The notes beneath the pieces are model-generated. The model was not told where the DNA came from and made no database searches. It saw only the letters and a list, made by a program, of their open reading frames with translations. From the NCBI GenBank assembly GCA_964057225.1, contig OZ059894.1, forward strand, positions 3,658,001 to 3,722,000: a stretch of 64,000 nt of DNA, in the 5' to 3' direction. Every line of letters begins with the position of its first letter. The stretch's first letter is position 1. The DNA is from Auanema rhodensis (lineage: Eukaryota; Animalia; Nematoda). This document shows, piece by piece, positions 1 to 64,000 of this stretch. Position numbers and translations under genes: made by a program.

Positions 1-3000
1 CACGTAAATTTTAAAGTCATGGTTGCCATGCACCAAGATCAATAAAAATTTGTTTTTAGACTAATATGGAAATGGGGAATTTATTTTGAAAACCGCATCT
101 CTTTATCTGTCACGTGAAGCGAGTTACATACCAAGTGCACATCATGTGTACACTTAATTAGCATAAATTAAAGTTCACGTAAATTTCAAAGTCATGGTTA
201 CCATGCACCAATATTAATAAAAATTTGTTTTTAGACTAATATGGATATAGGGAATCTAATTTTGAAAACCGCATCTCTTTATCTTTGACTTGAAGCGAGT
301 TACATACCAAGTGCACATCATGTGTACACTTAATTAGCATAAATTGAAGTTCACGTAAAATTCAAAGTCATGGTTACCATCCACCAATATCAACAAAAAT
401 GTGTTTTTAGACTAATATGGACATGGGGAATCTAATTTTGAAAACCGCATCTCTTCATCTTTCACGTGAAGCGAGTTACATACCAAGTGCACATCACGTG
501 TACACTTAATTAGCATAAATTGAAGTTCACGTAAATTTCAAAGTCATGGTTACCATGCACCAATATCAATAAAAATTTGTTTTTAGACTAATATGGAAAT
601 GGGGAATCTAATTTTGAAAACCGCATCTCTTCATCTTTCACGTGAAGCGAGTTACATACCAAGTGCACATCATGTGTACACTTAATTAGCATAAATTAAA
701 CTTCACGTAAATTTCAAAGTCATGGTTACCATGCACCAATATTAATAAAAATTTGTTTTTAGACTAATATGGACATGGGGAATCTAATTTTGAAAACCGC
801 ATCCCTTTATCTTTCACGTGAAGCGAGTTACATACCAAGTGCACATCACGTGTACACTTAATAAGCATAAATTAAAGTTCACGTAAATTTCAAAGTCATG
901 GTTACCATGCACCAATATCAATAAAAATTTGTTTTTAGACTAATATGGACATGAGGAATCTAATTTTGAAAACCGCATCTCTTCATCTTTCATGTGAAGC
1001 GAGTTACATACCAAGTGCACATCATGTGTACACTTAATTAGCATAAATTAAAGTTCACGTAAATTTCAAAGTCATGGTTACCATGCACCAATATTAATAA
1101 AAATTTGTTTTTAGACTAATATGGACATGGGGAATCTAATTTTGAAAACCGCATCTCTTTATCTTTGACGTGAAGCGAGTTACATACCAAGTGCACATCA
1201 TGTGTACACTTAATTAGCATAAATTAAAGTTCACGTAAATTTCAAAGTCATGGTTACCATGCACCAATATTAATAAAAATTTGTTTTTAGACTAATATGG
1301 ACATAGGGAATCTAATTTTGAAAACCGCATCTCTTTATCTTTGACTTGAAGCGAGTTACATACCAAGTGAACATCATGTGTACACTTAATTAGCATAAAT
1401 TAAAGTTCACGTAAATTTCAAAGTCATGGTTACCATGCACCAATATTAATAAAAATTTGTTTTTAGACTAATATGGACATAGGGAATCTAATTTTGAAAA
1501 CCGCATCTCTTTATCTTTGACGTAAAGCGAGTTACATACCAAGTGCACATCATGTGTACACTTAATTAGCATAAATTAAAGTTCACGTAAATTTCAAAGT
1601 CATGGTTACCATGCACCAATATCAATAAAAATTTGTTTTTAGACTAATATGGAAATGGGGAATCTAATTTTGAAAACCGCATCTCTTCATCTTTCACGTG
1701 AAGCGAGTTACATACCAAGTGCACATCATGTGTACACTTAATTAGCATAAATTAAAGTTCACGTAAATTTCAAAGTCATGGTTACCATGCACCAATAATA
1801 ATAAAAATTTGTTTTTAGACTAATATGGACATGGGGAATCTAATTTTGAAAACCGCATCTCTTTATCTTTGACGTGAAGCGAATTACATACCAAGTGCAC
1901 ATCATGTGTACACTTAATTAGCATAAATTTAAGTTCACGTAAATTTTAAAGTCATGGTTGCCATGCACCAATATCAATAAAAATTTGTTTTTAGACTAAC
2001 ATGGAAATGGGGAATCTAATTTTGAAAACCGCATCTCTTTATCTTTCACGTGAAGCGAGTTACATACCAAGCGCACATCATGTGTACACTTAATTAGCAT
2101 AAATTAAAGTTCACGTAAATTTCAAAGTCATGGTTACCATGCACCAATATTAATAAAAATTTGTTTTTAGACTAATATGGACATGGGGAATCTAATTTTG
2201 AGAACCGCATCTCTTTATCTTAGACGTAAAGCGAGTTACATACCAAGTGCACATCATGTGTACACTTAATTAGCATAAATTAAAGTTCACGTAAATTTTA
2301 AAGTCATGGTTGCCATGCACCAAAATCAATAAAAATTTGTTTTTAGACTAATATGGAAATGGGGAATCTATTTTGAAAACCGCATCTCTTTATCTTTCAC
2401 GTGAAGCGAGTTACATACCAAGTGCACATCATGTGTACACTTAATTAGCATAAATTAAAGTTCACGTAAATTTCAAAGTCATGGTTACCATGCACCAATA
2501 TTAATAAAAATTTGTATTTAGACTAATATGGACATGGGGAATCTAATTTTGAAAACCGCATCTCTTTATCTTTGACGTGAAGCGAGTTACATACCAAGTG
2601 CACATCATGTGTACACTTAATTAGCATAAATTAAAGTTCACGTAAATTTCAAAGTCATGGTTACCATGCACCAATATTAATAAAAATTTGTTTTTAGACT
2701 AATATGGACATAGGGAATCTAATTTTGAAAACCGCATCTCTTTATCTTTGACTTGAAGCGAGTTACATACCAAGTGCACATCATGTGTACACTTAATTAG
2801 CATAAATTAAAGTTCACGTAAATTTCAAAGTCATGGTTACCATGCACCAATATTAATAAAAATTTGTTTTTAGACTAATATGGACATAGGGAATCTAATT
2901 TTGAAAACCGCATCTCTTTATCTTTGACGTAAAGCGAGTTACATACCAAGTGCACATCATGTGTACACTTAATTAGCATAAATTAAAGTTCACGTAAATT

Positions 3001-6000
3001 TCAAAGTCATGGTTACCATGCACCAATATCAATAAAAATTTGTTTTTAGACTAATATGGAAATGGGGAATCTAATTTTGAAAACCGCATCTCTTCATCTT
3101 TCACGTGAAGCGAGTTACATACCAAGTGCACATCATGAGTACACTTAATTAGCATAAATTAAAGTTCACGTAAATTTCAAAGTCATGGTTACCATGCACC
3201 AATATCAATAAAAATTTGTTTTTAGACTAATATGGACATGGGGAATCTAATTTTGAAAACCGCATCCCTTTATCTTTCACGTGAAGCGAGTTACATACCA
3301 AGTGCACATCACGTGTACACTTAATAAGCATAAATTAAAGTTCACGTAAATTTCAAAGTCATGGTTACCATGCACCAATATCAATAAAAATTCGTTTTTA
3401 GACTAATATGGACATGAGGAATCTAATTTTGAAAACCGCATCTCTTTATCTTTGACGTGAAGCGAGTTACATACCAAGTGCACATCATGTGTACACTTAA
3501 TTAGCATAAATTAAAGTTCACGTAAATTTCAAAGTCATGGTTACCATGCACCAATAATAATAAAAATTTGTTTTTAGACTAATATGGACATGGGGAATCT
3601 AATTTTGAAAACCGCATCTCTTTATCTTTGACGTGAAGCGAATTACATACCAAGTGCACATCATGTGTACACTTAATTAGCATAAATTTAAGTTCACGTA
3701 AATTTTAAAGTCATGGTTGCCATGCACCAATATCAATAAAAATTTGTTTTTAGACTAACATGGAAATGGGGAATCTAATTTTGAAAACCGCATCTCTTTA
3801 TCTTTCACGTGAAGCGAGTTACATACCAAGCGCACATCATGTGTACACTTAATTAGCATAAATTAAAGTTCACGTAAATTTCAAAGTCATGGTTACCATG
3901 CACCAATATTAATAAAAATTTGTTTTTAGACTAATATGGACATGGGGAATCTAATTTTGAAAACCGCATCTCTTTATCTTAGACGTAAAGCGAGTTACAT
4001 ACCAAGTGCACATCATGTGTACACTTAATTAGCATAAATTAAAGTTCACGTAAATTTTAAAGTCATGGTTGCCATGCACCAATATCAATAAAAATTTGTT
4101 TTTAGACTAATATGGAAATGGGGAATCTATTTTGAAAACCGCATCTCTTTATCTTTCACGTGAAGCGAGTTACATACCAAGTGCACATCATGTGTACACT
4201 TAATTAGCATAAATTAAAGTTCACGTAAATTTCAAAGTCATGGTTACCATGCACCAATATTAATAAAAATTTGTTTTTAGACTAATATGGACATAGGGAA
4301 TCTAATTTTGAAAACCGCATCTCTTTATCTTTGACTTGAAGCGAGTTACATACCAAGTGCACATCATGTGTACACTTAATTAGCATAAATTAAAGTTCAC
4401 GTAAATTTCAAAGTCATGGTTACCATGCACCAATATTAATAAAAATTTGTTTTTAGACTAATATGGACATAGGGAATCTAATTTTGAAAACCGCATCTCT
4501 TTATCTTTGACGTAAAGCGAGTTACATACCAAGTGCACATCATGTGTACACTTAATTAGCATAAATTAAAGTTCACGTAAATTTCAAAGTCATGGTTACC
4601 ATGCACCAATATCAATAAAAATTTGTTTTTAGACTAATATGGACATGGGGAATCTAATTTTGAAAACCGCATCCCTTTATCTTTCACGTGAAGCGAGTTA
4701 CATACCAAGTGCACATCACGTGTACACTTAATTAGCATAAATTAAAGTTCACGTAAATTTCAAAGTCATGGTTACCATGCACCAATATCAATAAAAATTT
4801 GTTTTTAGACTAATATGGAAATGGGGAATCTAATTTTGAAAACCGCATCTCTTTATCTTTGACGTGAAGCGAATTACATACCAAGTGCACATCATGTGTA
4901 CACTTAATTAGCATAAATTTAAGTTCACGTAAATTTTAAAGTCATGGTTGCCATGCACCAATATCAATAAAAATTTGTTTTTAGACTAACATGGAAATGG
5001 GGGAATCTAATTTTGAAAACCGCATCTCTTTATCTTTCACGTGGAGCGAGTTACATACCAAGCGCACATCATGTGTACACTTAATTAGCATAAATTAAAG
5101 TTCACGTAAATTTTAAAGTCATGGTTGCCATGCACCAATATCAATAAAAATTTGTTTTTAGACTAATATGGAAATGGGGAATCTAATTTTGAAAACCGCA
5201 TCCCTTTATCTTTCACGTGAAGCGAGTTACATACCAAGTGCACATCACGTGTACACTTAATAAGCATAAATTAAAGTTCACGTAAATTTCAAAGTCATGG
5301 TTACCATGCACCAATATCAATAAAAATTTGTTTTTAGACTAATATGGACATGGGGAATCTAATTTTGAAAACCGCATCCTTTTATCTTTCACGTGAAGCG
5401 AGTTACATACCAAGTGCACATCACGTGTACACTTAATAAGCATAAATTAAAGTTCACGTAAATTTCAAAGTCATGGTTACCATGCACCAATATCAATAAA
5501 AATTCGTTTTTAGACTAATATGGACATGAGGAATCTAATTTTGAAAACCGCATCTCTTTATCTTTGACGTGAAGCGAGTTACATACCAAGTGCACATCAT
5601 GTGTACACTTAATTAGCATAAATTAAAGTTCACGTAAATTTCAAAGTCATGGTTACCATGCACCAATAATAATAAAAATTTGTTTTTAGACTAATATGGA
5701 CATGGGGAATCTAATTTTGAAAACCGCATCTCTTTATCTTTGACGTGAAGCGAATTACATACCAAGTGCACATCATGTGTACACTTAATTAGCATAAATT
5801 TAAGTTCACGTAAATTTTAAAGTCATGGTTGCCATGCACCAATATCAATAAAAATTTGTTTTTAGACTAACATGGAAATGGGGAATCTAATTTTGGAAAC
5901 CGCATCTCTTTATCTTTCACGTGAAGCGAGTTACATACCAAGCGCACATCATGTGTACACTTAATTAGCATAAATTAAAGTTCACGTAAATTTCAAAGTC

Positions 6001-9000
6001 ATGGTTACCATGCACCAATATTAATAAAAATTTGTTTTTAGACTAATATGGACATGGGGAATCTAATTTTGAAAACCGCATCTCTTTATCTTAGACGTAA
6101 AGCGAGTTACATACCAAGTGCACATCATGTGTACACTTAATTAGCATAAATTAAAGTTCACGTAAATTTTAAAGTCATGGTTGCCATGCACCAATATCAA
6201 TAAAAATTTGTTTTTAGACTAATATGGAAATGGGGAATCTATTTTGAAAACCGCATCTCTTTATCTTTCACGTGAAGCGAGTTACATACCAAGTGCACAT
6301 CATGTGTACACTTAATTAGCATAAATTAAAGTTCACGTAAATTTCAAAGTCATGGTTACCATTCACCAATATTAATAAAAATTTGTTTTTAGACTAATAT
6401 GGACATAGGGAATCTAATTTTGAAAACCGCATCTCTTTATCTTTCACGTGAAGCGAGTTACATACCAAGTGCACATCATGTGTACACTTAATTAGCATAA
6501 ATTGAAGTTCACGTAAATTTCAAAGTCATGGTTACCATGCACCAATATTAATAAAAATTTGTTTTTAGACTAATATGGACATGGGGAATCTAATTTTGAA
6601 AACCGCATCTCTTTATCTTAGACGTAAAGCGAGTTACATACCAAGTGCACATCATGTGTACACTTAATTAGCATAAATTAAAGTTCACGTAAATTTTAAA
6701 GTCATGGTTGCCATGCACCAATATCAATAAAAATTTGTTTTTAGACTAATATGGAAATGGGGAATCTAATTTTGAAAACCGCATCTCTTCATCTTTCACG
6801 TGAAGCGAGTTACATACCAAGTGCACATCATGTGTACCCTTAATTAGCATAAATTAAAGTTCACGTAAATTTCAAAGTCATGGTTACCATGCACCAATAT
6901 TAATAAAAATTTGTTTTTAGACTAATATGGACATGGGGAATCTAATTTTGAAAACCGCATCCCTTTATCTTTCACGTGAAGCGAGTTACATACCAAGTGC
7001 ACATCACGTGTACACTTAATAAGCATAAATTAAAGTTCACGTAAATTTCAAAGTCATGGTTACCATGCACAAATATCAATAAAAATTCGTTTTTAGACTA
7101 ATATGGACATGAGGAATCTAATTTTGAAAACCGCATCTCTTCATCTTTCATGTGAAGCGAGTTACATACCAAGTGCACATCATGTGTACACTTAATTAGC
7201 ATAAATTAAAGTTCACGTAAATTTCAAAATCATGGTTACCATGCACCAATATTAATAAAAATTTGTTTTTAGACTAATATGGACATGGGGAATCTAATTT
7301 TGAAAACCGCATCTCTTTATCTTTGACGTGAAGCGAGTTACATACCAAGTGCACATCATGTGTACACTTAATGAGCATAAATTAAAGTTCACGTAAATTT
7401 CAAAGTCATGGTTACCATGCACCAATATTAATAAAAATTTGTTTTTAGACTAATATGGACATAGGGAATCTAATTTTGAAAACCGCATCTCTTTATCTTT
7501 CACGTGAAGCGAGTTACATACCAAGCGCACATCATGTGTACACTTAATTAGCATAAATTAAAGTTCACGTAAATTTCAAAGTCATGGTTACCATGCACCA
7601 ATATTAATAAAAATTTGTTTTTAGACTAATATGGACATGGGGAATCTAATTTTGAAAACCGCATCTCTTTATCTTAGACGTAAAGCGAGTTACATACCAA
7701 GTGCACATCATGTGTACACTTAATTAGCATAAATTAAAGTTCACGTAAATTTTAAAGTCATGGTTGCCATGCACCAATATCAATAAAAATTTGTTTTTAG
7801 ACTAATATGGAAATGGGGAATCTATTTTGAAAACCGCATCTCTTTATCTTTCACGTGAAGCGAGTTACATACCAAGTGCACATCATGTGTACACTTAATT
7901 AGCATAAATTAAAGTTCACGTAAATTTCAAAGTCATGGTTACCATTCACCAATATTAATAAAAATTTGTTTTTAGACTAATATGGACATAGGGAATCTAA
8001 TTTTGAAAACCGCATCTCTTTATCTTTGACTTGAAGCGAGTTACATACCAAGTGCACATCATGTGTACACTTAATTAGCATAAATTGAAGTTCACGTAAA
8101 TTTCAAAGTCATGGTTACCATCCACCAATATCAACAAAAATGTGTTTTTAGACTAATATGGACATGGGGAATCTAATTTCGAAAAGCGCATCTCTTCATC
8201 TTTCACGTGAAGCGAGTTACATACCAAGTGCACATCACGTGTACACTTAATAAGCATAAATTAAAGTTCACGTAAATTTCAAAGTCATGGTTACCATGCA
8301 CCAATATCAATAAAAATTTGTTTTTAGACTAATATGGAAATGGGGAATCTAATTTTGAAAACCGCATCCCTTTATCTTTCACGTGAAGCGAGTTACATAC
8401 CAAGTGCACATCACGTGTACACTTAATAAGCATAAATTAAAGTTCACGTAAATTTCAAAGTCATGGTTACCATGCACAAATATCAATAAAAATTCGTTTT
8501 TAGACTAATATGGACATGAGGAATCTAATTTTGAAAACCGCATCTCTTCATCTTTCATGTGAAGCGAGTTACATACCAAGTGCACATCATGTGTACACTT
8601 AATTAGCATAAATTAAAGTTCACGTAAATTTCAAAATCATGGTTACCATGCACCAATATTAATAAAAATTTGTTTTTAGACTAATATGGACATGGGGAAT
8701 CTAATTTTGAAAACCGCATCTCTTTATCTTTGACGTGAAGCGAGTTACATACCAAGTGCACATCATGTGTACACTTAATGAGCATAAATTAAAGTTCACG
8801 TAAATTTCAAAGTCATGGTTACCATGCACCAATATTAATAAAAATTTGTTTTTAGACTAATATGGAAATAGGGAATCTAATTTTGAAAACCGCATCTCTT
8901 TATCTTTGACTTGAAGCGAGTTACATACCAAGTGCACATCATGTGTACACTTAATTAGCATAAATTAAAGTTCACGTAAATTTCAAAGTCATGGTTACCA

Positions 9001-12000
9001 TGCACCAATATTAATAAAAATTTGTTTTTAGACTAATATGGACATGGGGAATCTAATTTTGAAAACCGCATCTCTTCATCTTTCACGTGAAGCGAGTTAC
9101 ATACCAAGTGCACATCACGTTTACACTTAATTAGCATAAATTGAAGTTCACGTAAATTTCAAAGTCATGGTTACCATGCACCAATATCAATAAAAATTTG
9201 TTTTTAGACTAATATGGACATGGGGAATCTAATTTTGAAAACCGCATCTCTTTATCTTTGACGTGAAGCGAATTACATACCAAGTGCACATCATGTGTAC
9301 ACTTAATTAGCATAAATTTAAGTTCACGTAAATTTTAAAGTCATGGTTACCATGCACCAATATTAATAAAAATTTGTTTTTAGACTAATATGGACATGGG
9401 GAATCTAATTTTGAAAACCGCATCTCTTTATCTTTGACGTGAAGCGAGTTACATACCAAGTGCACATCATGTGTACACTTAATTAGCATAAATTAAAGTT
9501 CACGTAAATTTCAAAGTCATGGTTACCATGCACCAATATCAATAAAAATTTGTTTTTAGACTAATATGGACATGAGGAATCTAATTTTGAAAACCGCATC
9601 TCTTCATCTTTCATGTGAAGCGAGTTACATACCAAGGGCACATCATGTGTACACTTAATTAGCATAAATTAAAGTTCACGTAAATTTCAAAGTCATGGTT
9701 ACCATGCACCAATATTAATAAAAATTTGTTTTTAGACTAATATGGACATGGGGAATCTAATTTTGAAAACCGCATCTCTTTATCTTTGACGTGAAGCGAG
9801 TTACATACCAAGTGCACATCATGTGTACACTTAATTAGCATAAATTAAAGTTCACGTAAATTTCAAAGTCATGGTTACCATGCACCAATATTAATAAAAA
9901 TTTGTTTTTAGACTAATATGGACATAGGGAATCTAATTTTGAAAACCGCATCTCTTTATCTTTGACTTGAAGCGAGTTACATACCAAGTGCACATCATGT
10001 GTACACTTAATTAGCATAAATTAAAGTTCACGTAAATTTCAAAGTCATGGTTACCATGCACCAATATTAATAAAAATTTGTTTTTAGACTAATATGGACA
10101 TAGGGAATCTAATTTTGAAAACCGCATCTCTTTATCTTTGACGTAAAGCGAGTTACATACCAAGTGCACATCATGTGTACACTTAATTAGCATAAATTAA
10201 AGTTCACGTAAATTTCAAAGTCATGGTTACCATGCACCAATATCAATAAAAATTTGTTTTTAGACTAATATGGAAATGGGGAATCTAATTTTGAAAACCG
10301 CATCTCTTCATCTTTCACGTGAAGCGAGTTACATACCAAGTGCACATCATGTGTACACTTAATTAGCATAAATTAAAGTTCACGTAAATTTCAAAGTCAT
10401 GGTTACCAAGCACCAATAATAATAAAAATTTGTTTTTAGACTAATATGGACATGGGGAATCTAATTTTGAAAACCGCATCTCTTTATCTTTGACGTGAAG
10501 CGAATTACATACCAAGTGCACATCATGTGTACACTTAATTAGCATAAATTTAAGTTCACGTAAATTTTAAAGTCATGGTTGCCATGCACCAATATCAATA
10601 AAAATTTGTTTTTAGACTAACATGGAAATGGGGAATCTAATTTTGAAAACCGCATCTCTTTATCTTTCACGTGAAGCGAGTTACATACCAAGCGCACATC
10701 ATGTGTACACTTAATTAGCATAAATTAAAGTTCACGTAAATTTCAAAGTCATGGTTACCATGCACCAATATTAATAAAAATTTGTTTTTAGACTAATATG
10801 GACATGGGGAATCTAATTTTGAGAACCGCATCTCTTTATCTTAGACGTAAAGCGAGTTACATACCAAGTGCACATCATGTGTACACTTAATTAGCATAAA
10901 TTAAAGTTCACGTAAATTTTAAAGTCATGGTTGCCATGCACCAATATCAATAAAAATTTGTTTTTAGACTAATATGGAAATGGGGAATCTATTTTGAAAA
11001 CCGCATCTCTTTATCTTTCACGTGAAGCGAGTTACATACCAAGTGCACATCATGTGTACACTTAATTAGCATAAATTAAAGTTCACGTAAATTTCAAAGT
11101 CATGGTTACCATGCACCAATATTAATAAAAATTTGTTTTTAGACTAATATGGACATGGGGAATCTAATTTTGAAAACCGCATCTCTTTATCTTTGACGTG
11201 AAGCGAGTTACATACCAAGTGCACATCATGTGTACACTTAATTAGCATAAATTAAAGTTCACGTAAATTTCAAAGTCATGGTTACCATGCACCAATAGTA
11301 ATAAAAATTTGGTTTTAGACTAATATGGACATAGGGAATCTAATTTTGAAAACCGCATCTCTTTATCTTTGACTTGAAGCGAGTTACATACCAAGTGCAC
11401 ATCATGTGTACACTTAATTAGCATAAATTAAAGTTCACGTAAATTTCAAAGTCATGGTTACCATGCACCAATATTAATAAAAATTTGTTTTTAGACTAAT
11501 ATGGACATAGGGAATCTAATTTTGAAAACCGCATCTCTTTATCTTTGACGTAAAGCGAGTTACATACCAAGTGCACATCATGTGTACACTTAATTAGCAT
11601 AAATTAAAGTTCACGTAAATTTCAAAGTCATGGTTACCATGCACCAATATCAATAAAAATTTGTTTTTAGACTAATATGGAAATGGGGAATCTAATTTTG
11701 AAAACCGCATCTCTTCATCTTTCACGTGAAGCGAGTTACATACCAAGTGCACATCATGAGTACACTTAATTAGCATAAATTAAAGTTCACGTAAATTTCA
11801 AAGTCATGGTTACCATGCACCAATATCAATAAAAATTTGTTTTTAGACTAATATGGACATGGGGAATCTAATTTTGAAAACCGCATCCCTTTATCTTTCA
11901 CGTGAAGCGAGTTACATACCAAGTGCACATCACGTGTACACTTAATAAGCATAAATTAAAGTTCACGTAAATTTCAAAGTCATGGTTACCATGCACCAAT

Positions 12001-15000
12001 ATCAATAAAAATTTGTTTTTAGACTAATATGGACATAGGGAATCTAATTTTGAAAACCGCATCTCTTTATCTTTGACGTGAAGCGAATTACATACCAAGT
12101 GCACATCATGTGTACACTTAATTAGCATAAATTTAAGTTCACGTAAATTTTAAAGTCATGGTTGCCATGCACCAATATCAATAAAAATTTGTTTTTAGAC
12201 TAACATGGAAATGGGGAATCTAATTTTGAAAACCGCATCTCTTTATCTTTCACGTGAAGCGAGTTACATACCAAGCGCACATCATGTGTACACTTAATTA
12301 GCATAAATTAAAGTTCACGTAAATTTCAAAGTCATGGTTACCATGCACCAATATTAATAAAAATTTGTTTTTAGACTAATATGGACATGGGGAATCTAAT
12401 TTTGAAAACCGCATCTCTTTATCTTAGACGTAAAGCGAGTTACATACCAAGTGCACATCATGTGTACACTTAATTAGCATAAATTAAAGTTCACGTAAAT
12501 TTTAAAGTCATGGTTGCCATGCACCAATATCAATAAAAATTTGTTTTTAGACTAATATGGAAATGGGGAATCTATTTTGAAAACCGCATCTCTTTATCTT
12601 TCACGTGAAGCGAGTTACATACCAAGTGCACATCATGTGTACACTTAATTAGCATAAATTAAAGTTCACGTAAATTTCAAAGTCATGGTTACCATGCACC
12701 AATATTAATAAAAATTTGTTTTTAGACTAATATGGACATAGGGAATCTAATTTTGAAAACCGCATCTCTTTATCTTTGACTTGAAGCGAGTTACATACCA
12801 AGTGCACATCATGTGTACACTTAATTAGCATAAATTAAAGTTCACGTAAATTTCAAAGTCATGGTTACCATGCACCAATATTAATAACAATTTGTTTTTA
12901 GACTAATATGGACATAGGGAATCTAATTTTGAAAACCGCATCTCTTTATCTTTGACGTAAAGCGAGTTACATACCAAGTGCACATCATGTGTACACTTAA
13001 TTAGCATAAATTAAAGTTCACGTAAATTTCAAAGTCATGGTTACCATGCACCAATATCAATAAAAATTTGTTTTTAGACTAATATGGAAATGGGGAATCT
13101 AATTTTGAAAACCGCATCTCTTCATCTTTCACGTGAAGCGAGTTACATACCAAGTGCACATCATGAGTACACTTAATTAGCATAAATTAAAGTTCACGTA
13201 AATTTCAAAGTCATGGTTACCATGCACCAATATTAATAAAAATTTGTTTTTAGACTAATATGGACATGGGGAATCTAATTTTGAAAACCGCATCTCTTTA
13301 TCTTTGACGTGAAGCGAGTTACATACCAAGTGCACATCATGTGTACACTTAATTAGCATAAATTAAAGTTCACGTAAATTTCAAAGTCATGGTTACCATG
13401 CACCAATATTAATAAAAATTTGTTTTTAGACTAATATGGACATAGGGAATCTAATTTTGAAAACCGCATCTCTTTATCTTTGACTTGAAGCGAGTTACAT
13501 ACCAAGTGCACATCATGTGTACACTTAATTAGCATAAATTAAAGTTCACGTAAATTTCAAAGTCATGGTTACCATGCACCAATATTAATAAAAATTTGTT
13601 TTTAGACTAATATGGACATAGGGAATCTAATTTTGAAAACCGCATCTCTTTATCTTTGACGTAAAGCGAGTTACATACCAAGTGCACATCATGTGTACAC
13701 TTAATTAGCATAAATTAAAGTTCACGTAAATTTCAAAGTCATGGTTACCATGCACCAATATCAATAAAAATTTGTTTTTAGACTAATATGGAAATGGGGA
13801 ATCTAATTTTGAAAACCGCATCTCTTCATCTTTCACGTGAAGCGAGTTACATACCAAGTGCACATCATGAGTACACTTAATTAGCATAAATTAAAGTTCA
13901 CGTAAATTTCAAAGTCATGGTTACCATGCACCAATATCAATACAAATTTGTTTTTAGACTAATATGGACATGGGAAATCTAATTTTGAAAACCGCATCCC
14001 TTTATCTTTCACGTGAAGCGAGTTACATACCAAGTGCACATCACGTGTACACTTAATAAGCATAAATTAAAGTTCACGTAAATTTCAAAGTCATGGTTAC
14101 CATGCACCAATATCAATAAAAATTCGTTTTTAGACTAATATGGACATGAGGAATCTAATTTTGAAAACCGCATCTCTTTATCTTTGACGTGAAGCGAGTT
14201 ACATACCAAGTGCACATCATGTGTACACTTAATTAGCATAAATTAAAGTTCACGTAAATTTCAAAGTCATGGTTACCATGCACCAATAATAATAAAAATT
14301 TGTTTTTAGACTAATATGGACATGGGGAATCTAATTTTGAAAACCGCATCTCTTTATCTTTGACGTGAAGCGAATTACATACCAAGTGCACATCATGTGT
14401 ACACTTAATTAGCATAAATTTAAGTTCACGTAAATTTTAAAGTCATGGTTGCCATGCACCAATATCAATAAAAATTTGTTTTTAGACTAACATGGAAATG
14501 GGGAATCTAATTTTGAAAACCGCATCTCTTTATCTTTCACGTGAAGCGAGTTACATACCAAGCGCACATCATGTGTATACTTAATTAGCATAAATTAAAG
14601 TTCACGTAAATTTCAAAGTCATGGTTACCATGCACCAATATTAATAAAAATTTGTTTTTAGACTAATATGGACATGGGGAATCTAATTTTGAAAACCGCA
14701 TCTCTTTATCTTTCACGTGAAGCGAGTTACATACCAAGCGCACATCATGTGTATACTTAATTAGCATAAATTAAAGTTCACGTAAATTTCAAAGTCATGG
14801 TTACCATGCACCAATATTAATAAAAATTTGTTTTTAGACTAATATGGACATGGGGAATCTAATTTTGAAAACCGCATCTCTTTATCTTAGACGTAAAGCG
14901 AGTTACATACCAAGTGCACATCATGTGTACACTTAATTAGCATAAATTAAAGTTCACGTAAATTTTAAAGTCATGGTTGCCATGCACCAATATCAATAAA

Positions 15001-18000
15001 AATTTGTTTTTAGACTAATATGGAAATGGGGAATCTATTTTGAAAACCGCATCTCTTTATCTTTCACGTGAAGCGAGTTACATACCAAGTGCACATCATG
15101 TGTACACTTAATTAGCATAAATTAAAGTTCACGTAAATTTCAAAGTCATGGTTACCATGCACAAATATTAATAAAAATTTGTTTTTAGACTAATATGGAC
15201 ATAGGGAATCTAATTTTGAAAACCGCATCTCTTTATCTTTGACTTGAAGCGAGTTACATACCAAGTGCACATCATGTGTACACTTAATTAGCATAAATTA
15301 AAGTTCACGTAAATTTCAAAGTCATGGTTACCATGCACCAATATTAATAAAAATTTGTTTTTAGACTAATATGGACATAGGGAATCTAATTTTGAAAACC
15401 GCATCTCTTTATCTTTGACGTAAAGCGAGTTACATACCAAGTGCACATCATGTGTACACTTAATTAGCATAAATTAAAGTTCACGTAAATTTCAAAGTCA
15501 TGGTTACCATGCACCAATATCAATAAAAATTTGTTTTTAGACTAATATGGAAATGGGGAATCTAATTTTGAAAACCGCATCTCTTCATCTTTCACGTGAA
15601 GCGAGTTACATACCAAGTGCACATCATGAGTACACTTAATTAGCATAAATTAAAGTTCACGTAAATTTCAAAGTCATGGTTACCATGCACCAATATCAAT
15701 AAAAATTTGTTTTTAGACTAATATGGACATGGGGAATCTAATTTTGAAAACCGCATCCCTTTATCTTTCACGTGAAGCGAGTTACATACCAAGTGCACAT
15801 CACGTGTACACTTAATAAGCATAAATTAAAGTTCACGTAAATTTCAAAGTCATGGTTACCATGCACCAATATCAATAAAAATTCGTTTTTAGACTAATAT
15901 GGACATGAGGAATCTAATTTTGAAAACCGCATCTCTTTATCTTTGACGTGAAGCGAGTTACATACCAAGTGCACATCATGTGTACACTTAATTAGCATAA
16001 ATTAAAGTTCACGTAAATTTCAAAGTCATGGTTACCATGCACCAATAATAATAAAAATTTGTTTTTAGACTAATATGGACATGGGGAATCTAATTTTGAA
16101 AACCGCATCTCTTTATCTTTGACGTGAAGCGAATTACATACCAAGTGCACATCATGTGTACACTTAATTAGCATAAATTTAAGTTCACGTAAATTTTAAA
16201 GTCATGGTTGCCATGCACCAATATCAATAAAAATTTGTTTTTAGACTAACATGGAAATGGGGAATCTAATTTTGAAAACCGCATCTCTTTATCTTTCACG
16301 TGAAGCGAGTTACATACCAAGCGCACATCATGTGTACACTTAATTAGCATAAATTAAAGTTCACGTAAATTTCAAAGTCATGGTTACCATGCACCAATAT
16401 TAATAAAAATTTGTTTTTAGACTAATATGGACATGGGGAATCTAATTTTGAAAACCGCATCTCTTCATCTTTCATGTGAAGCGAGTTACATACCAAGTGC
16501 ACATCATGTGTACACTTAATTAGCATAAATTAAAGTTCACGTAAATTTTAAAGTCATGGTTGCCATGCACCAATATCAATAAAAATTTGTTTTTAGACTA
16601 ATATGGAAATGGGGAATCTAATTTTGAAAACCGCATCCCTTTATCTTTCACGTGAAGCGAGTTACATACCAAGTGCACATCACGTGTACACTTAATAAGC
16701 ATAAATTAAAGTTCACGTAAATTTCAAAGTCATGGTTACCATGCACCAATATCAATAAAAATTTGTTTTTAGACTAATATGGACATGGGGAATCTAATTT
16801 TGAAAACCGCATCCCTTTATCTTTCACGTGAAGCGAGTTACATACCAAGTGCACATCACGTGTACACTTAATAAGCATAAATTAAAGTTCACGTAAATTT
16901 CAAAGTCATGGTTACCATGCACCAATATCAATAAAAATGTGTTTTTAGACTAATATGGACATGGGGAATCTAATTTCGAAAAGCGCATCTCTTCATCTTT
17001 CACGTGAAGCGAGTTACATACCAAGTGCACATCACGTGTACACTTAATAAGCATAAATTAAAGTTCACGTAAATTTCAAAGTCATGGTTACCATGCACCA
17101 ATATCAATAAAAATTTGTTTTTAGACTAATATGGAAATGGGGAATCTAATTTTGAAAACCGCATCTCTTCATCTTTCACGTGAAGCGAGTTACATACCAA
17201 GTGCACATCATGTGTACACTTAATTAGCATAAATTAAAGTTCACGTAAATTTCAAAGTCATGGTTACCATGCACCAATATTAATAAAAATTTGTTTTTAG
17301 ACTAATATGGACATGGGGAATCTAATTTTGAAAACCGCATCCCTTTATCTTTCACGTGAAGCGAGTTACATACCAAGTGCACATCACGTGTACACTTAAT
17401 AAGCATAAATTAAAGTTCACGTAAATTTCAAAGTCATGGTTACCATGCACCAATATCAATAAAAATTCGTTTTTAGACTAATATGGACATGAGGAATCTA
17501 ATTTTGAAAACCGCATCTCTTCATCTTTCATGTGAAGCGAGTTACATACCAAGTGCACATCATGTGTACACTTAATTAGCATAAATTAAAGTTCACGTAA
17601 ATTTCAAAGTCATGGTTACCATGCACCAATATTAATAAAAATTTGTTTTTAGACTAATATGGACATGGGGAATCTAATTTTGAAAACCGCATCTCTTTAT
17701 CTTTGACGTGAAGCGAGTTACATACCAAGTGCACATCATGTGTACACTTAATAAGCATAAATTAAAGTTCACGTAAATTTCAAAGTCATGGTTACCATGC
17801 ACCAATATCAATAAAAATTCGTTTTTAGACTAATATGGACATGAGGAATCTAATTTTGAAAACCGCATCTCTTCATCTTTCATGTGAAGCGAGTTACATA
17901 CCAAGTGCACATCATGTGTACACTTAATTAGCATAAATTAAAGTTCACGTAAATTTCAAAGTCATGGTTACCATGCACCAATATTAATAAAAATTTGTTT

Positions 18001-19348
18001 TTAGACTAATATGGACATGGGGAATCTAATTTTGAAAACCGCATCTCTTTATCTTTGACGTGAAGCGAGTTACATACCAAGTGCACATCATGTGTACACT
18101 TAATTAGCATAAATTAAAGTTCACGTAAATTTCAAAGTCATGGTTACCATGCACCAATATTAATAAAAATTTGTTTTTAGACTAATATGGACATAGGGAA
18201 TCTAATTTTGAAAACCGCATCTCTTTATCTTTGACTTGAAGCGAGTTACATACCAAGTGCACATCATGTGTACACTTAATTAGCATAAATTAAAGTTCAC
18301 GTAAATTTCAAAGTCATGGTTACCATGCACCAATATTAATAAAAATTTGTTTTTAGACTAATATGGACATAGGGAATCTAATTTTGAAAACCGCATCTCT
18401 TTATCTTTGACGTAAAGCGAGTTACATACCAAGTGCACATCATGTGTACACTTAATTAGCATAAATTAAAGTTCACGTAAATTTCAAAGTCATGGTTGCC
18501 ATGCACCAATATTAATAAAAATTTGTTTTTAGACTAATATGGACATAGGGAATCTAATTTTGAAAACCGCATCTCTTCATCTTTCATGTGAAGCGAGTTA
18601 CATACCAAGTGCACATCACGTGTACACTTAATAAGCATAAATTAAAGTTCACGTAAATTTCAAAGTCATGGTTACCATGCACCAATATCAATAAAAATTC
18701 GTTTTTAGACTAATATGGACATGAGGAATCTAATTTTGAAAACCGCATCTCTTTATCTTTGACGTGAAGCGAGTTACATACCAAGTGCACATCATGTGTA
18801 CACTTAATTAGCATAAATTAAAGTTCACGTAAATTTCAAAGTCATGGTTACCATGCACCAATAATAATAAAAATTTGTTTTTAGACTAATATGGACATGG
18901 GGAATCTAATTTTGAAAACCGCATCTCTTTATCTTTGACGTGAAGCGAATTACATACCAAGTGCACATCATGTGTACACTTAATTAGCATAAATTTAAGT
19001 TCACGTAAATTTTAAAGTCATGGTTGCCATGCACCAATATCAATAAAAATTTGTTTTTAGACTAACATGGAAATGGGGAATCTAATTTTGAAAACCGCAT
19101 CTCTTTATCTTTCACGTGAAGCGAGTTACATACCAAGCGCACATCATGTGTACACTTAATTAGCATAAATTAAAGTTCACGTAAATTTCAAAGTCATGGT
19201 TACCATGCACCAATATTAATAAAAATTTGTTTTTAGACTAATATGGACATGGGGAATCTAATTTTGAAAACCGCATCTCTTTATCTTAGACGTAAAGCGA
19301 GTTACATACCAAGTGCACATCATGTGTACACTTAATTAGCATAAATTA
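1..19348. repeat. SatA tandem satellite array, 176-bp monomer (recurrent 175-bp variant), left of the LINE; about 110 monomers
   Basis: Consensus CACGTAAATTTCAAAGTCATGGTTACCATGCACCAATATTAATAAAAATTTGTTTTTAGACTAATATGGACATGGGGAATCTAATTTTGAAAACCGCATCTCTTTATCTTTGACGTGAAGCGAGTTACATACCAAGTGCACATCATGTGTACACTTAATTAGCATAAATTAAAGTT. Monomer starts at 1, 176, 352 and so on. All copies are in one orientation and differ by a few recurrent substitutions. Confidence 0.99.
1760..4600. repeat. SatA 10-mer higher-order repeat (1759 bp); boundaries approximate
   Basis: Marker ACCAATAATA recurs at 1791 and 3550, and at 14282 and 16041 (spacing 1759 = 9x176+175). It is followed by the same ordered variants GAATTAC and AACATGG/AAGCGCAC, and usually CTTAGACG and a 175-bp monomer. 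Confidence 0.8.
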
Positions 19349-19887
19349 GTCAAGGTTTATTGTTCTTTATCACAGGTTGTAACATTAGTGGTTTTTAAGA
19401 GAAGAAGTATGAAAAAAGATCCTTACAATACGAACATAATTATAAAAATTAAAAAATGAATAAGCAATAAATGTGCAAAGTTGAGAAGAGTTATTGAATC
19501 AATTTTGTCTTTTAAGATACATACTTTTAGCTAGTCTCTCTATGTATTATGAAATGTTAACCCATTCTCAAAAAACAGGGGAGTTGTTCAAATCAGATAA
19601 GTGATCTGACCTCTTTTTTTACGTTTACCAGGTGCGGTGGAACTTATAATAAAGTCGAGCCCGTTCTGGTAAGAAGAGGTAACTGTCACCTGGTTCGTAT
19701 GGCTAATGCCTATAGAAACTATGGTGAAGTAACAGTGTAGCAAAGAAGGAAGCGAGGATGTGGTTGGAACAAAACAGTGACACATAAAGTAACTTAGCTT
19801 TAAAAAGTTATAAAAAAACATATTGAGACAATAATTCAAAAAAATAGGACGCTAGACAAATATAGTACAAAAATGAGAAAAATAAAT
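19349..19887 (-). other. LINE 3' UTR (about 540 nt), U-rich, with a structured core at 19593-19694
   Basis: Lies between the ORF2 stop and the 3' junction with the satellite; contains several complementary segments. Confidence 0.85.
19356..19361 (-). terminator. AATAAA polyadenylation-like signal 7 nt before the element 3' end
   Basis: Minus strand ...GAACAATAAACCTTGAC|satellite; no poly(A) tail follows. Confidence 0.65.
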
Positions 19888-22749
19888 TTAATGATTCTTA
19901 AGAAAAACTTGAAGATGTTTACGGAAGTTGACAACTTTTTCAAGATTGACAATGTTCTCTGGTATTGAGTTCCAAGTGTCTATGCCTCTGTATTCAATAC
20001 CTCTTCTGGTCTGAGTTTTCCGGAGGTTGGGATGCTCAACATTCCATTCATGTCGCCTCATGAAGTGTGTGTACTTTTTGAGCTTAAGAATATCCAAGCT
20101 ATTATCTGAAGTAGGCGACTTTATTTGGTTAAAATAAAAAATCAAATCAAAAACGAGTCTTCTGAAAAATAACTTTTGACCTCCTAATAAAGAAAGTTGA
20201 TTTTCATAGTTTATTTTAGATCCAGAGCGCATGAAAACTGCGCGCAAAAACTTTTTCTGGACGTATTCGATCTGGTCCTTGTCTTTAGAATCCTGTGGTG
20301 ACCAAATAATAGTAGCATATTCTAGAATCGGTCGTATATAAGTGCAAAAAAGATTATACATTAGAAAAGGTGATTTGGAGTAAAAACAACGTAAAATTAT
20401 TCGACATTTTCGTGCCGCTTCGCTTGTAATTTTGTTTATGTGGTTTGAAAAAGAGAGATTAGAGTTTGTTAAAACTCCTAGATCTTTGTAGCAATCTACT
20501 AAAGATAGGTTACTGTCACCGAAGGTGAAGGCAATATTTTCAGGATGACGGATCGACTTACTTGATATTACCATTATTTTAGATTTAGAAGTGTTGACGG
20601 CCATTCCGTTAGAGTTGCACCATAGTTCTAATTGATCAAGAGCACGTTGTAGACTGGTAGGGTTAGTACTGTACAGTTTCAAATCGTCTGCATAGAGAAT
20701 AGAGTTAACATCAGCAGGAAAACTTGATGTAATATCATTGATGTAATACAAAAACAACAAAGGACCAAGTACTGTACCTTGTGGTACACCACAAGTGAGT
20801 TGTACAGGTGGTGATAAAATATTATTGACCATAACTGAAAAAGACCTACCAGAAATAAAACTTTGGAGAAAATAATAAAGTGGGCCCTTGATTCCTATAG
20901 AGTTGAGCTTTGAAAAAAGAGTAAAGTGGTTTATAAGATCGAAAGCTTTTGAAAAATCAATAAAAGCTACGAAAACCGGAATATTGCAGTCCAATGAAGA
21001 CCTAAAGAAAATGTGGCTACTGAGAATAGCAGAAACAGTGTTTCTTTTAGGAAGAAAGGCGTGTTGATTTGTTGATATGGCACCATTAGAAATACCGAAA
21101 TTCAAAAGTGGAGTACGTATGATACGCTCAAAAACTTTTGAAAGACTGGAAGTGAGTGAAATTGGGCGGTAGTTACCTGGATCGTCAGATTTGCCTGTCT
21201 TGAAAATGGGACGAATCCAGGCTAATTTCCAATCGGAAGGACAAGTAGCGGAAACCAGCAAATTGTGAAAAATAAAAGCTAATGGATTAGCTAAGGAAAA
21301 AGCACACTGTTTGAGAAAATAGTATGGAATGCCATCCGGGGACGTAGAAACTCTGAGTGGTAGATTTTGAAGAGTTTTGTAGACTAAATCAGGTGTTATG
21401 TCTATAAAATCAATGGTATGATTGTGTGTGAAAGAAGGAACGGGTGTGTGAGTTGTTTCTGGATGGACCAGTGGAGAAACAGTGAAAACATTAGCGAATG
21501 CTGACACTTTACCGACATCTGAAGAAACTGTCTCATTATTGACAGTGAGGTTGGGAACGTCCGATGTATTACCATTTAATCGGGATTTACAAAAACGATA
21601 GAAAAGTTTAGGATTTTTTAAAGCAGCGATACGCTCTTCTTCTGAAGCACATTTGATTTTTATGAGTTTGTCCAATTTGATTGAAAGATTTTTACGATGG
21701 ATTTCGTCAGATGAGTATAAAGAACAACTTAGCCTGTTTATATAGTTTCTGAGTTTTATAATGTCACGATCCACTTTTTTATTTTTCCTTGGTTGTTTTT
21801 TAGGAACAAAAGTATTAATGATTGAGTGTAAAATAGAAATGAATCTAGAATAAGATTGGAGTGGACTGAAACCTGAAAGTTCAGAACAGAAATCAATGTT
21901 GGCTAGTTGCCTATTGATGAGCTCATAGTCCGCCAGAAGAAAATTCCGTTCCGTTGAAGTGGAAAGAAGTGTGGATTGAACACTACGTGAATTTTGGATT
22001 TGTAAACTCAGCCCTTTTGAAAGTATCTGGAAAGTTATTGAAAAATGGTCAGAAGCTCCTAGAGGAGCAGAACGGTTGATGTTGTTGATACATTCGACGT
22101 TGTTTGTAATGATATAGTCAAGAGTATTTTCACCTCTTGTAGGGAAATGGATCAGCTGGTTGAGACAGTTGTGATTGAGAAATTTAAGTAAAGTTTTACT
22201 CGAAGGAGTAGGTTGAGAACACATACCAAGATCCCAGTTTATTTTAGGAAAATTAAGGTCACCTGTGAGAACAAGAGTACGATTGGATAAATGATTCTGA
22301 AGATCACAAATGTAATTGGAAAAATCTGAATGTGATGATGATGGGGAACGATAACAAACAGAGAAAATAGAATTAGAAGAAGTAATGAGGATATTTATAA
22401 ATTGAATGGTGGATGAGTTAGGGGAACAAGAAAGGAGAGAAAAAGTAATGTGTTTTTTAACAAAGAGTAAAACACCACCTCCACGTGAGTAACACCTATC
22501 AGCCCTAAGGATATTATAGGTGTCACCTAACGGTAGAAGATTGGTGTTAAACTGAGGGTAAAGCCAAGATTCTGATATAGCAATTATATCAGGAGCTTTA
22601 GGAAAAATGATAATTGGAAGAAGATGGAGTTTGTTAAGGATTGAGCGTGCATTGTAACAGTGAACAGAAATGTGAGTGGAGTGAGAGACGTAGACAGGTG
22701 TTGATATGGACGTTGAATTAACGAAAGGACACGTTATCGGACAAAACAA
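19888..22749 (-). CDS. LINE ORF2: apurinic-like endonuclease plus reverse transcriptase. The listed start is a TTG; the frame is probably entered by a +1 frameshift at about 22723
   Basis: APE motifs CYNARS, ISESWL, RGGGV, YRSP, GDLNFP, PTR..NTLDYI, SDH. RT motifs PDGIP, NYRPISLTS, FIDFSKAFD, GVPQGTVLGPLLF, YADD, KDLGV. CR1-type C-terminus (R...TWNSIPE.IV....F..HL) with no CCHC knuckle. 953 codons without a stop. Confidence 0.97.
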   Translation of the reverse strand: MFCPITCPFVNSTSISTPVYVSHSTHISVHCYNARSILNKLHLLPIIIFPKAPDIIAISESWLYPQFNTNLLPLGDTYNILRADRCYSRGGGVLLFVKKHITFSLLSCSPNSSTIQFINILITSSNSIFSVCYRSPSSSHSDFSNYICDLQNHLSNRTLVLTGDLNFPKINWDLGMCSQPTPSSKTLLKFLNHNCLNQLIHFPTRGENTLDYIITNNVECINNINRSAPLGASDHFSITFQILSKGLSLQIQNSRSVQSTLLSTSTERNFLLADYELINRQLANIDFCSELSGFSPLQSYSRFISILHSIINTFVPKKQPRKNKKVDRDIIKLRNYINRLSCSLYSSDEIHRKNLSIKLDKLIKIKCASEEERIAALKNPKLFYRFCKSRLNGNTSDVPNLTVNNETVSSDVGKVSAFANVFTVSPLVHPETTHTPVPSFTHNHTIDFIDITPDLVYKTLQNLPLRVSTSPDGIPYYFLKQCAFSLANPLAFIFHNLLVSATCPSDWKLAWIRPIFKTGKSDDPGNYRPISLTSSLSKVFERIIRTPLLNFGISNGAISTNQHAFLPKRNTVSAILSSHIFFRSSLDCNIPVFVAFIDFSKAFDLINHFTLFSKLNSIGIKGPLYYFLQSFISGRSFSVMVNNILSPPVQLTCGVPQGTVLGPLLFLYYINDITSSFPADVNSILYADDLKLYSTNPTSLQRALDQLELWCNSNGMAVNTSKSKIMVISSKSIRHPENIAFTFGDSNLSLVDCYKDLGVLTNSNLSFSNHINKITSEAARKCRIILRCFYSKSPFLMYNLFCTYIRPILEYATIIWSPQDSKDKDQIEYVQKKFLRAVFMRSGSKINYENQLSLLGGQKLFFRRLVFDLIFYFNQIKSPTSDNSLDILKLKKYTHFMRRHEWNVEHPNLRKTQTRRGIEYRGIDTWNSIPENIVNLEKVVNFRKHLQVFLKNH
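22718..22729 (-). promoter_or_regulatory. Candidate programmed +1 ribosomal frameshift site UCC_UUU_CGU(_UAA) at the ORF1/ORF2 overlap
   Basis: Minus strand reads GTG TCC TTT CGT TAA in the ORF1 frame. Skipping the C at 22723 gives TTT GTT AAT TCA ACG (F-V-N-S-T), which is the ORF2 frame. Confidence 0.75.
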
Positions 22750-23641
22750 CGGAAGATGGTGCGGAAGGACTACTCATAGATCTGGTATTTGGTCCAGTTG
22801 ATTTAGCTGAGCGAGGCGGATTTTTTCTCCTCCTTGGACTTATAGAATGATTTTTGTTGGTCGATACAGATACCTCTCTCTCATTAGACCGACTGGATCT
22901 ACCAGATTTACGAGGGGGGCTAGAAATAATAGAAGAAACAGGCTTTGAAGTGGTACTGTGGTCAGAATCAACTCCTGAAGGGGTTTCAAGTTGTTGAGTG
23001 TCCGCAGAGACAGAGAGAGTGTTAATGGCATGCAAAGTAGAATCGGTGGATTTACGAAGAACCTCAATAATTTTGAGATCACGCACAAGGAAAATGCTTT
23101 TAGTGTTGTTATCGTTTTTGATCTTAGCTTCATTTCGCAATTGTTTTTCCAGTTCAATCTCGAACGGAAGATAATCTCGCCGTAAAAACGTTTTTGAAAG
23201 AGAGTCAAAGCATTTTGACTTATTAGACTTTATAACTTTGATAATTTCATCACGTAAATCAACCGATGGACATGTAATGATAAGAGGACCAGGGAAATTA
23301 GATTTAAGAGTGGAACGTGCAATGGTGATTTGGTTACTATCGATCAAAGAAGACAAAGTAGTGTTTTGAGACTTTTCAATGATGAGTTTCAATAACAACA
23401 GAGGTTCAGTTGGAAAATCTGTTGACGTTATAGGTACTCGGAACCAAAGAGCTCTTTTGGCACGGTAAAGGTATTTTGTCTCCTCTGATCGTAGTTTTTG
23501 AAAATGGCATGCCACATTTAAATGAGAAGAAGTTGAAGCAGAAATAGAATTAGGGTTAGTAACGGTTTGAAAAGAAGAGATAGTTTGCTCTAATTTATCT
23601 AAACGGGATTTGAAATCCGTTTCAATAAATTTGGTTACCAT
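22718..23641 (-). CDS. LINE ORF1 (RNA-binding/chaperone type), N-terminally truncated; first codons M-V-T come from the satellite
   Basis: Directly upstream of ORF2. Heptad-like segment FKSRLDKLEQTISSFQ, then motifs PGPLIITCPSVDLRDEII and FLRRDYLPFEIELEKQLRNEAKIKN...FLVRDLKI that resemble CR1-type ORF1 cores, then a Ser/Pro/Arg-rich tail. Confidence 0.85.
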   Translation of the reverse strand: MVTKFIETDFKSRLDKLEQTISSFQTVTNPNSISASTSSHLNVACHFQKLRSEETKYLYRAKRALWFRVPITSTDFPTEPLLLLKLIIEKSQNTTLSSLIDSNQITIARSTLKSNFPGPLIITCPSVDLRDEIIKVIKSNKSKCFDSLSKTFLRRDYLPFEIELEKQLRNEAKIKNDNNTKSIFLVRDLKIIEVLRKSTDSTLHAINTLSVSADTQQLETPSGVDSDHSTTSKPVSSIISSPPRKSGRSSRSNEREVSVSTNKNHSISPRRRKNPPRSAKSTGPNTRSMSSPSAPSSVVLSDNVSFR

Positions 23642-63700: not shown

Positions 63701-64000
63701 ATATCAACTGATATAAGTTCACACTTATATCCTCGATTTTCACCCTGAAGAATTAATTTTTTCGTTGAATAACAATGTCCATCGTCTTTGCCTTGAAAAA
63801 AGGAATCTAAAAACTTCTACTTTTTGCTAAATTATTTTGAAATTTTTCGAAAAAATTTTTGTCAAAATGTTTTTGGAAGCAATGTTGAGTGTACATGGAA
63901 ACTCAACATACACTAATGCATCATTTTTCAAACGATCATAACTAATTTTTGTATTAAGCGTTTCTCAATGTAGTATAGTGCATTCGATGCGGATTTTTAA
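57736..64000. repeat. SatB tandem satellite array, 351-bp monomer, about 17.8 copies, runs off the window
   Basis: TATCAACTGATATAAGTTCACAC... starts at 57736, 58087, 58438, 58789, 59140, 59491 and 59841 (one 350-bp copy). Copies are highly similar and each has several inverted repeats. Confidence 0.99.

Follow-up and report, generated by a model that had tools for sequence, protein, structure and literature searches.

The window analyzed here is a 64,000-nt stretch of Auanema rhodensis DNA (contig OZ059894.1, positions 3,658,001 to 3,722,000) that consists almost entirely of satellite, with one long interspersed nuclear element (LINE) on the minus strand between the arrays. All three open reading frames (ORFs) of at least 100 codons in the window belong to this LINE. 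ORF1 (22718-23629) is truncated at its 5' end. ORF2 (19888-22773), an open frame of 961 codons without the stop, encodes an APE endonuclease domain (22045-22671; Pfam PF03372 and PF14529) followed by a reverse transcriptase (RT) domain (20563-21192; PF00078, E = 8.4e-33). The invariant N, E, GD.N and D residues of APE endonucleases are present in the ORF2 alignment, the first catalytic Asn lying at 22653. With APE and then RT in ORF2, and a coiled coil, an RNA recognition motif (RRM) and a C-terminal domain (CTD) in ORF1, the element has the composition of APE-type retrotransposons without long terminal repeats (non-LTR); it is a 5'-truncated APE-type LINE. The best named RT matches of ORF2 are Caenorhabditis and bird proteins, the top one from Caenorhabditis brenneri. 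We take the element to be CR1-like; the trees contained no named CR1 reference.

The ORF1 protein resembles that of L1. Residues ~34 to 195 form an RRM/CTD region like that of the L1 ORF1 protein (ORF1p), and residues 197 to 303 a predicted disordered, Ser-rich tail that ends in S-F-R. In a structure model (pLDDT 66.8 overall), a coiled coil accompanies a folded core and the tail is disordered. All five Foldseek matches to this model at E ≤ 0.001 are human L1 ORF1p (best 2ykq, E = 6.2e-5), whose fold (PMC2881922) the ORF1 model resembles. ORF1 matched no Pfam family, gave no match in a word-based search and had no atlas match at or above 0.9 (best 0.89). Relative to its homologues it lacks ~50 to 55 codons at the 5' end (query residue 8 aligns with residue 62 of the homologue P0133). 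The flanking satellite, which begins at 23632, contains an ATG at 23641 in the frame of the truncated ORF1; that the satellite supplies a start in this frame (23641-23630) is probably chance.

At the junction between the two ORFs, on the minus strand, ORF1 ends in TCC TTT CGT (22729-22721), a candidate +1 slip site in the ORF1 frame, which is adjoined by the TAA stop (22720-22718). ORF2 lies in the +1 frame relative to ORF1. A TGA at 22776-22774 closes the ORF2 frame upstream, leaving it open from 22773 and setting an overlap of 56 nt (22773-22718). The first ATG of ORF2, at 22224, is codon 184 when counted from the start of the open frame and codon 176 when counted from the TTG at 22749, and it comes only after the catalytic GDLN at codon 171 of the open frame. 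The first catalytic Asn is 24 codons past the candidate slip site. An earlier sequence-only reading of the window had reported the end of ORF1, the register and overlap of ORF2 and the late position of its first AUG, and each of these coordinates was confirmed on the sequence.

UCC_UUU_CGU is the +1 frameshift site of influenza A PA-X, where it was mapped by mass spectrometry and described as shifting ~1% of ribosomes (PMC3498833), and the PA-X site is described as working without a stimulatory structure (PMC5009743). The LINE junction shares several features with this class: UUU_C at the P site in the ORF1 frame, CGN at the A site, UCC at the E site, and a downstream ORF that is open in +1 at the site and has no start of its own. 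The nine bases, their zero frame and the +1 position of the downstream ORF are as reported for influenza A (PMC3498833). Amalgaviruses, fijiviruses and chronic bee paralysis virus are assigned to the same UUU_CGN class, and in amalgaviruses the shift is reported to yield an ORF1-polymerase fusion (PMC3498833, PMC5052127). The candidate LINE site differs from the viral ones in its position. It lies 45 nt from the 5' end of the 56-nt overlap, at the 3' end of that overlap, with a stop directly past CGU, whereas the viral UUU_CGN sites are described near the 5' end of their overlaps, which span 287 to 968 nt in amalgaviruses (PMC3498833, PMC5052127). No RNA structure was predicted past the ORF1 stop (fold z -0.24), and a 3' stimulatory structure was rejected as a candidate on this value.

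The TCC TTT CGT 9-mer is present once in the LINE. Given ORF1 codon use, the chance of finding it within the 17 overlap codons is 2.7e-4, a post hoc figure, and the corresponding post hoc chances of the looser motifs TTT CGN and TTT-C are 0.019 and 0.076.

Starting from what is observed at the junction, namely its layout, its domains, its register and the absence of an ATG or a splice acceptor, we consider it probable, by analogy with PA-X, that a small share of ribosomes slips +1 at UCC_UUU_CGU and thereby makes an ORF1-APE-RT fusion. With UCC in the E site and CGU waiting in the A site, the P-site tRNA-Phe would re-pair from UUU to UUC, and the next codon read past the slip would be GUU of ORF2. 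If the PA-X level is taken over by analogy, ~1% of ribosomes would shift, and a single RNA would give much ORF1p and very little fusion, in the manner of Gag and Gag-Pol. The disordered tail of ORF1, together with the 24 codons past the site, would act as a linker. Through the coiled coil, the enzyme could be brought into an ORF1p particle on its own RNA. The sequence-only reading had proposed such a fusion with a length of 1250 amino acids (aa). That figure includes the ATG at 23641, which is satellite; the fusion derived from the element itself would be 1246 aa.

The junction was also compared with other copies. Thirteen sequencing runs were listed, none of them of RNA, which speaks for neither side; nine, from three studies, contain half or more of the words, and four were compared. 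Near-identical contigs in two of these four align to 22671-23101 and 22671-23288, free of gaps and with a single differing letter. Because these contigs bridge the junction without gaps, the frame offset is not an assembly error. Judging from the shared depth of the 3' flank, they may be copies of the same insertion rather than independent insertions. One of the four runs has no cover at 22622-22923. A sister element, ~83% identical (117 other letters in 707 nt; 165 in 984 nt), spans the junction in two of the four runs. Its four gaps form two compensating pairs, at 22704/22708 and 22943/22950, each with a net change of zero, and there is no gap between 22709 and 22942. Since the register is thus kept, it is older than this copy. 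Near-identical copies from three of the four runs also lack 36 nt (22635-22670), an in-frame deletion by which the endonuclease loses its first catalytic Asn.

The closest homologues of ORF1 end in much the same way. Scanned in full with HMMER, a set of 1.84 billion representatives yielded seven ORF1 matches, three of them at E ≤ 1e-10, and the named homologues come from Auanema, Gnathostoma and Pristionchus. The three closest are Auanema gene models (CAI4220742.1, CAI4221027.1 and CAI4220829.1; 30 to 32% identical). Compared as proteins, they end in SFRK, SFR and STFRK, where the ORF1 of the window ends in SFR, and over their last 60 residues they share only 12 to 15 with it. By chance, a given protein would have F-R among its final four residues with a probability of ~0.005, and F-R is absent there from all 40 other ORF1 candidates. 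One of the weaker matches, P0138, may represent the ORF1 that belongs to the nearest ORF2 relative.

We also surveyed junctions in distant LINEs, using loci from metagenomes and bacterial bins whose true hosts we infer to be animals. Phylogenies were generated with FastTree; a blast-ratio screen for loci in the clade of the window LINE was discarded as confounded by match length, and the tree was used instead. The ORF1 alignment was too variable for use in scanning, and viral contigs gave one partial RT match. In a first set of 161 loci, an APE start could be located in 75 (the window included) and a junction in 41, of which 33 were kept after dropping the window, 2 near-duplicates and 5 junctions with a short overlap or none. 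The last 12 codons contain an in-frame TTT-C in 5 of 10 +1 junctions and in 1 of the other 23 (P = 0.005). Counted over the whole overlap, TTT-C is present in 8 of 10 +1 and 2 of 17 -1 junctions. A held-out set of 111 loci added 20 new junctions, 17 of them usable. We then applied a uniform pipeline to all 272 loci. Among the 144 with an APE start, 26 duplicates and 49 loci without a homology-validated ORF1 were dropped, leaving 69 junctions: 22 same-frame with a single stop, 15 in +1, 23 in -1 and 9 gapped or short. TTT-C is present in 8 of the 15 +1 overlaps (1.0 expected) versus 5 of the 23 -1 overlaps (2.5 expected; P = 0.049), and its enrichment per codon has a P value of 0.012. TTT-CG occurs in 3 of 15 +1 junctions (L030, L084 and L236) versus 0 of 23 -1 (P = 0.054), and YCN-TTT-C, a post hoc motif, in 6 of 15 versus 0 of 23 (P = 0.002). 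This TTT-C survey gives modest support for +1 slippage.

Two other patterns in the survey are stronger. The ORF2 frame is open all the way back to the ORF1 stop in 46 of the 52 junctions with a spacer of at least 10 codons (5.4 expected from shuffles), and in 33 of the 35 of these that have no usable ATG, as opposed to 8 of 104 for the other frames. The entry into ORF2 is therefore tied to the end of ORF1. In addition, a TAA closes ORF1 at 23 of 38 shifted junctions but at 1 of the 22 that stay in frame (P = 2e-5, uncorrected for kinship). Such frame-specific use of stops is expected from recoding and not from reinitiation that is blind to frame.

Several observations count against slippage at this site. 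The main one comes from the sister element, whose 22704/22708 gap pair, taken literally, produces a stop in the ORF2 frame 13 nt past the ORF1 stop; substitutions could change this, and the sister may itself be damaged, may have its junction elsewhere or may rely on another mechanism. The three close ORF1 homologues share 21 to 28 of their last 60 residues with each other and so amount to roughly one observation; they are known as proteins, and F-R could be a protein motif whose codons are not necessarily TTT CGN. All four weaker ORF1 matches lack an S/T-F-R ending, and one of them, P0137 from Pristionchus, is a single gene model of ORF1 plus APE. None of the surveyed loci falls within the clade of the window LINE. 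Among all 256 in-frame 4-mers of the first set, CCA-G (5 of 10 versus 0 of 23) matched TTT-C in enrichment, and 6 of the 8 +1 loci with TTT-C in that set have an in-frame ATG upstream of the catalytic Asn. In the held-out set TTT-C did not replicate (0 of 2 +1 versus 3 of 7 -1 junctions), and collapsing one related ORF1 group in the uniform set left 4 of 10 versus 5 of 23 (P = 0.25). Of the conservation that the sequence-only reading had asked for, the peptide is kept in all three close homologues, and the distant TTT-C association lacked held-out replication. Finally, stop-coupled reinitiation predicts a frame open back to the stop just as well.

This raises the question as to whether ORF2 is instead made as a separate protein by AUG-independent termination-reinitiation. 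Ribosomes would stop at the TAA and restart at one of the near-cognate codons that lie 5 to 50 nt past it in the ORF2 frame (22669-22713: ACG at 22713, ATA at 22707 and ATT at 22671), and S-F-R would either be a motif of the protein or belong to a reinitiation signal. The position of these codons directly past the stop suits such a restart, which would also tolerate the possible stop in the sister element. L1 ORF2 is reported to tolerate loss of its AUG (PMC1965478, PMC5009743), and among 65 intact relatives, 25 lack an ATG ahead of the catalytic Asn. The junction frames of close relatives vary (22 same-frame, 15 +1 and 23 -1), as frame-blind reinitiation allows. What reinitiation does not predict is an exact PA-X 9-mer in register, the F-R ends of the homologues or the frame-specific use of stops. 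Mammalian L1 and silkworm SART1 are described as having bicistronic RNAs with a low ORF2 output coupled to ORF1 translation (PMC5009743, PMC3894237, PMC1965478, PMC10275272). According to these sources both make a separate ORF2 protein, L1 without an AUG and SART1 through UAAUG and a downstream structure. The SART1-type signal is absent here, with no UAAUG or AUG at the ORF1 stop and no downstream RNA structure at the z value given above. The sequence-only reading had set frameshifting in place of reinitiation; the 9-mer, the register and the S/T-F-R ending in three of three close homologues favor it, but an AUG-less ORF2 is also compatible with reinitiation of the L1 type. On balance, we regard reinitiation as the main rival, less likely than slippage.

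A copy-specific error is far less probable. Here the family would have one continuous ORF, or an AUG for ORF2, and this copy would carry a one-base indel, a mutation or an assembly error, with the motif present by chance. The Pristionchus gene model that joins a homologous ORF1 to APE in one protein would fit a continuous ORF, and the near-identical contigs may be the same insertion. The gapless contigs in two of four runs, the register kept by the 83% sister in two of four runs and the shared S/T-F-R end of three homologues all stand against it. We found neither the continuous ORF nor the copy-specific indel that the sequence-only reading had named as fatal to its case, and the indel or assembly-error explanation is largely refuted.

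Nematodes trans-splice. Access to ORF2 by cis- or trans-splicing or by internal ribosome entry, the last discussed in a review as a possibility for non-LTR ORF2 (PMC3894237), is nevertheless very improbable: there is no AG dinucleotide in 22770-22640 and hence no splice acceptor, as the sequence-only reading had required; 22900-22600 contains neither a TTTCAG-like acceptor nor a GTRAG donor; a trans-spliced message would have no AUG; and no structure is predicted past the ORF1 stop. Two joints in the copies, 22595-22898 and 22634-22671, were considered as introns and rejected, as they lack GT..AG ends.

Slippage at UCC_UUU_CGU thus remains the reading we favor, and it has partial precedents among retroelements. 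Yeast Ty1 and Ty3 are described as shifting +1 near the end of their structural ORF to make a fusion at a set ratio, as proposed here; they differ in being LTR elements with another site and a scarce tRNA as the driver (PMC5911963). TRE5-A and TRE3-A of Dictyostelium are APE-type non-LTR elements with two ORFs, the second of which is stated to need a frameshift. In that review the shift is -1, and the elements differ further in targeting tRNA genes (PMC5911963). Frameshifting in APE-type LINEs is not wholly new, given the -1 shift stated for TRE5-A and TRE3-A, but a +1 or UUU_CGN shift in a LINE was not found in the literature at the level of titles and the beginnings of abstracts, with most subscription papers outside that scope. 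Frameshifting has been proposed before for overlapping ORFs of insect non-LTR elements.

More tentatively, recoding to an ORF1-ORF2 fusion may be general in CR1-like invertebrate LINEs, with a signal fitted to each frame: UUU_C(GN) where the shift is +1, slippery heptamers where it is -1, and leaky contexts (UAG-G or stop-CA) where the two ORFs share a frame. The lineage of the window LINE would then be the first among retroelements in which the PA-X site occurs exactly, and LINEs would translate ORF2 in a manner nearer to Gag-Pol than the L1 model suggests. How LINE ORF2 is translated is called an open question in one review (PMC3894237), and a nine-base site makes that question directly testable. 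If slippage occurs here, the PA-X class of +1 sites extends from RNA viruses to retrotransposons, and a fused ORF1-APE-RT protein bears on how the enzyme stays with its own RNA. Many AUG-less LINE ORF2s would then have been annotated with the wrong start, and some intact elements scored as broken.

The survey yielded further observations on the other junction classes. The 22 same-frame junctions with a single stop between ORF1 and ORF2 (L021, L039, L072, L089, L119, L206, L216, L235, L237, L242, L245-L248, L254, L255, L257, L262, L272 and 3 more) include 13 with TAG-G, 5 with stop-CA and 1 with TAA. TAG-G and stop-CA are leaky stop contexts, and from their sequences these junctions look like stop-codon readthrough in LINEs. 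A stop-CAR association (3 of 6 versus 2 of 27; P = 0.03 in the first set) did not recur in the held-out set (0 of 8). Among -1 junctions, five (L019, L134, L151, L152 and L159) have a T TTT TTA or T TTA AAC heptamer directly before the ORF1 stop; such heptamers were not significantly enriched at -1 junctions (4 of 17 versus 0 of 16, P = 0.058; held-out, 1 of 7). In L221 and L155, ORF candidates end in TTT TAG and ORF2 lies in the +1 frame, which may be a shifty-stop version of the slip (UUU to UUU); in L155 the candidate is not a validated ORF1. Four bacterial bins (G011, G012, G013 and G001) hold many contigs with long open APE-RT frames, G011 with 121 APE-profile matches, and these contigs are likely eukaryotic host contamination.

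A 176-bp satellite array occupies 1-19348 on the 3' side of the LINE and 23632-57739 on its 5' side. The probable 3' untranslated region spans 19613-19887, its end placed by a short A run and by where the sister-element contigs stop aligning (19616-19624), and ~260 bp of nonsatellite DNA (19349-19612) lie between this end and the satellite. No target-site duplication was seen at the insertion, across which ~25 bp of a satellite unit are missing. Farther along, the 176-bp satellite gives way abruptly to a 351-bp satellite array (57736-64000), with 98% matches between the 351-bp copies.

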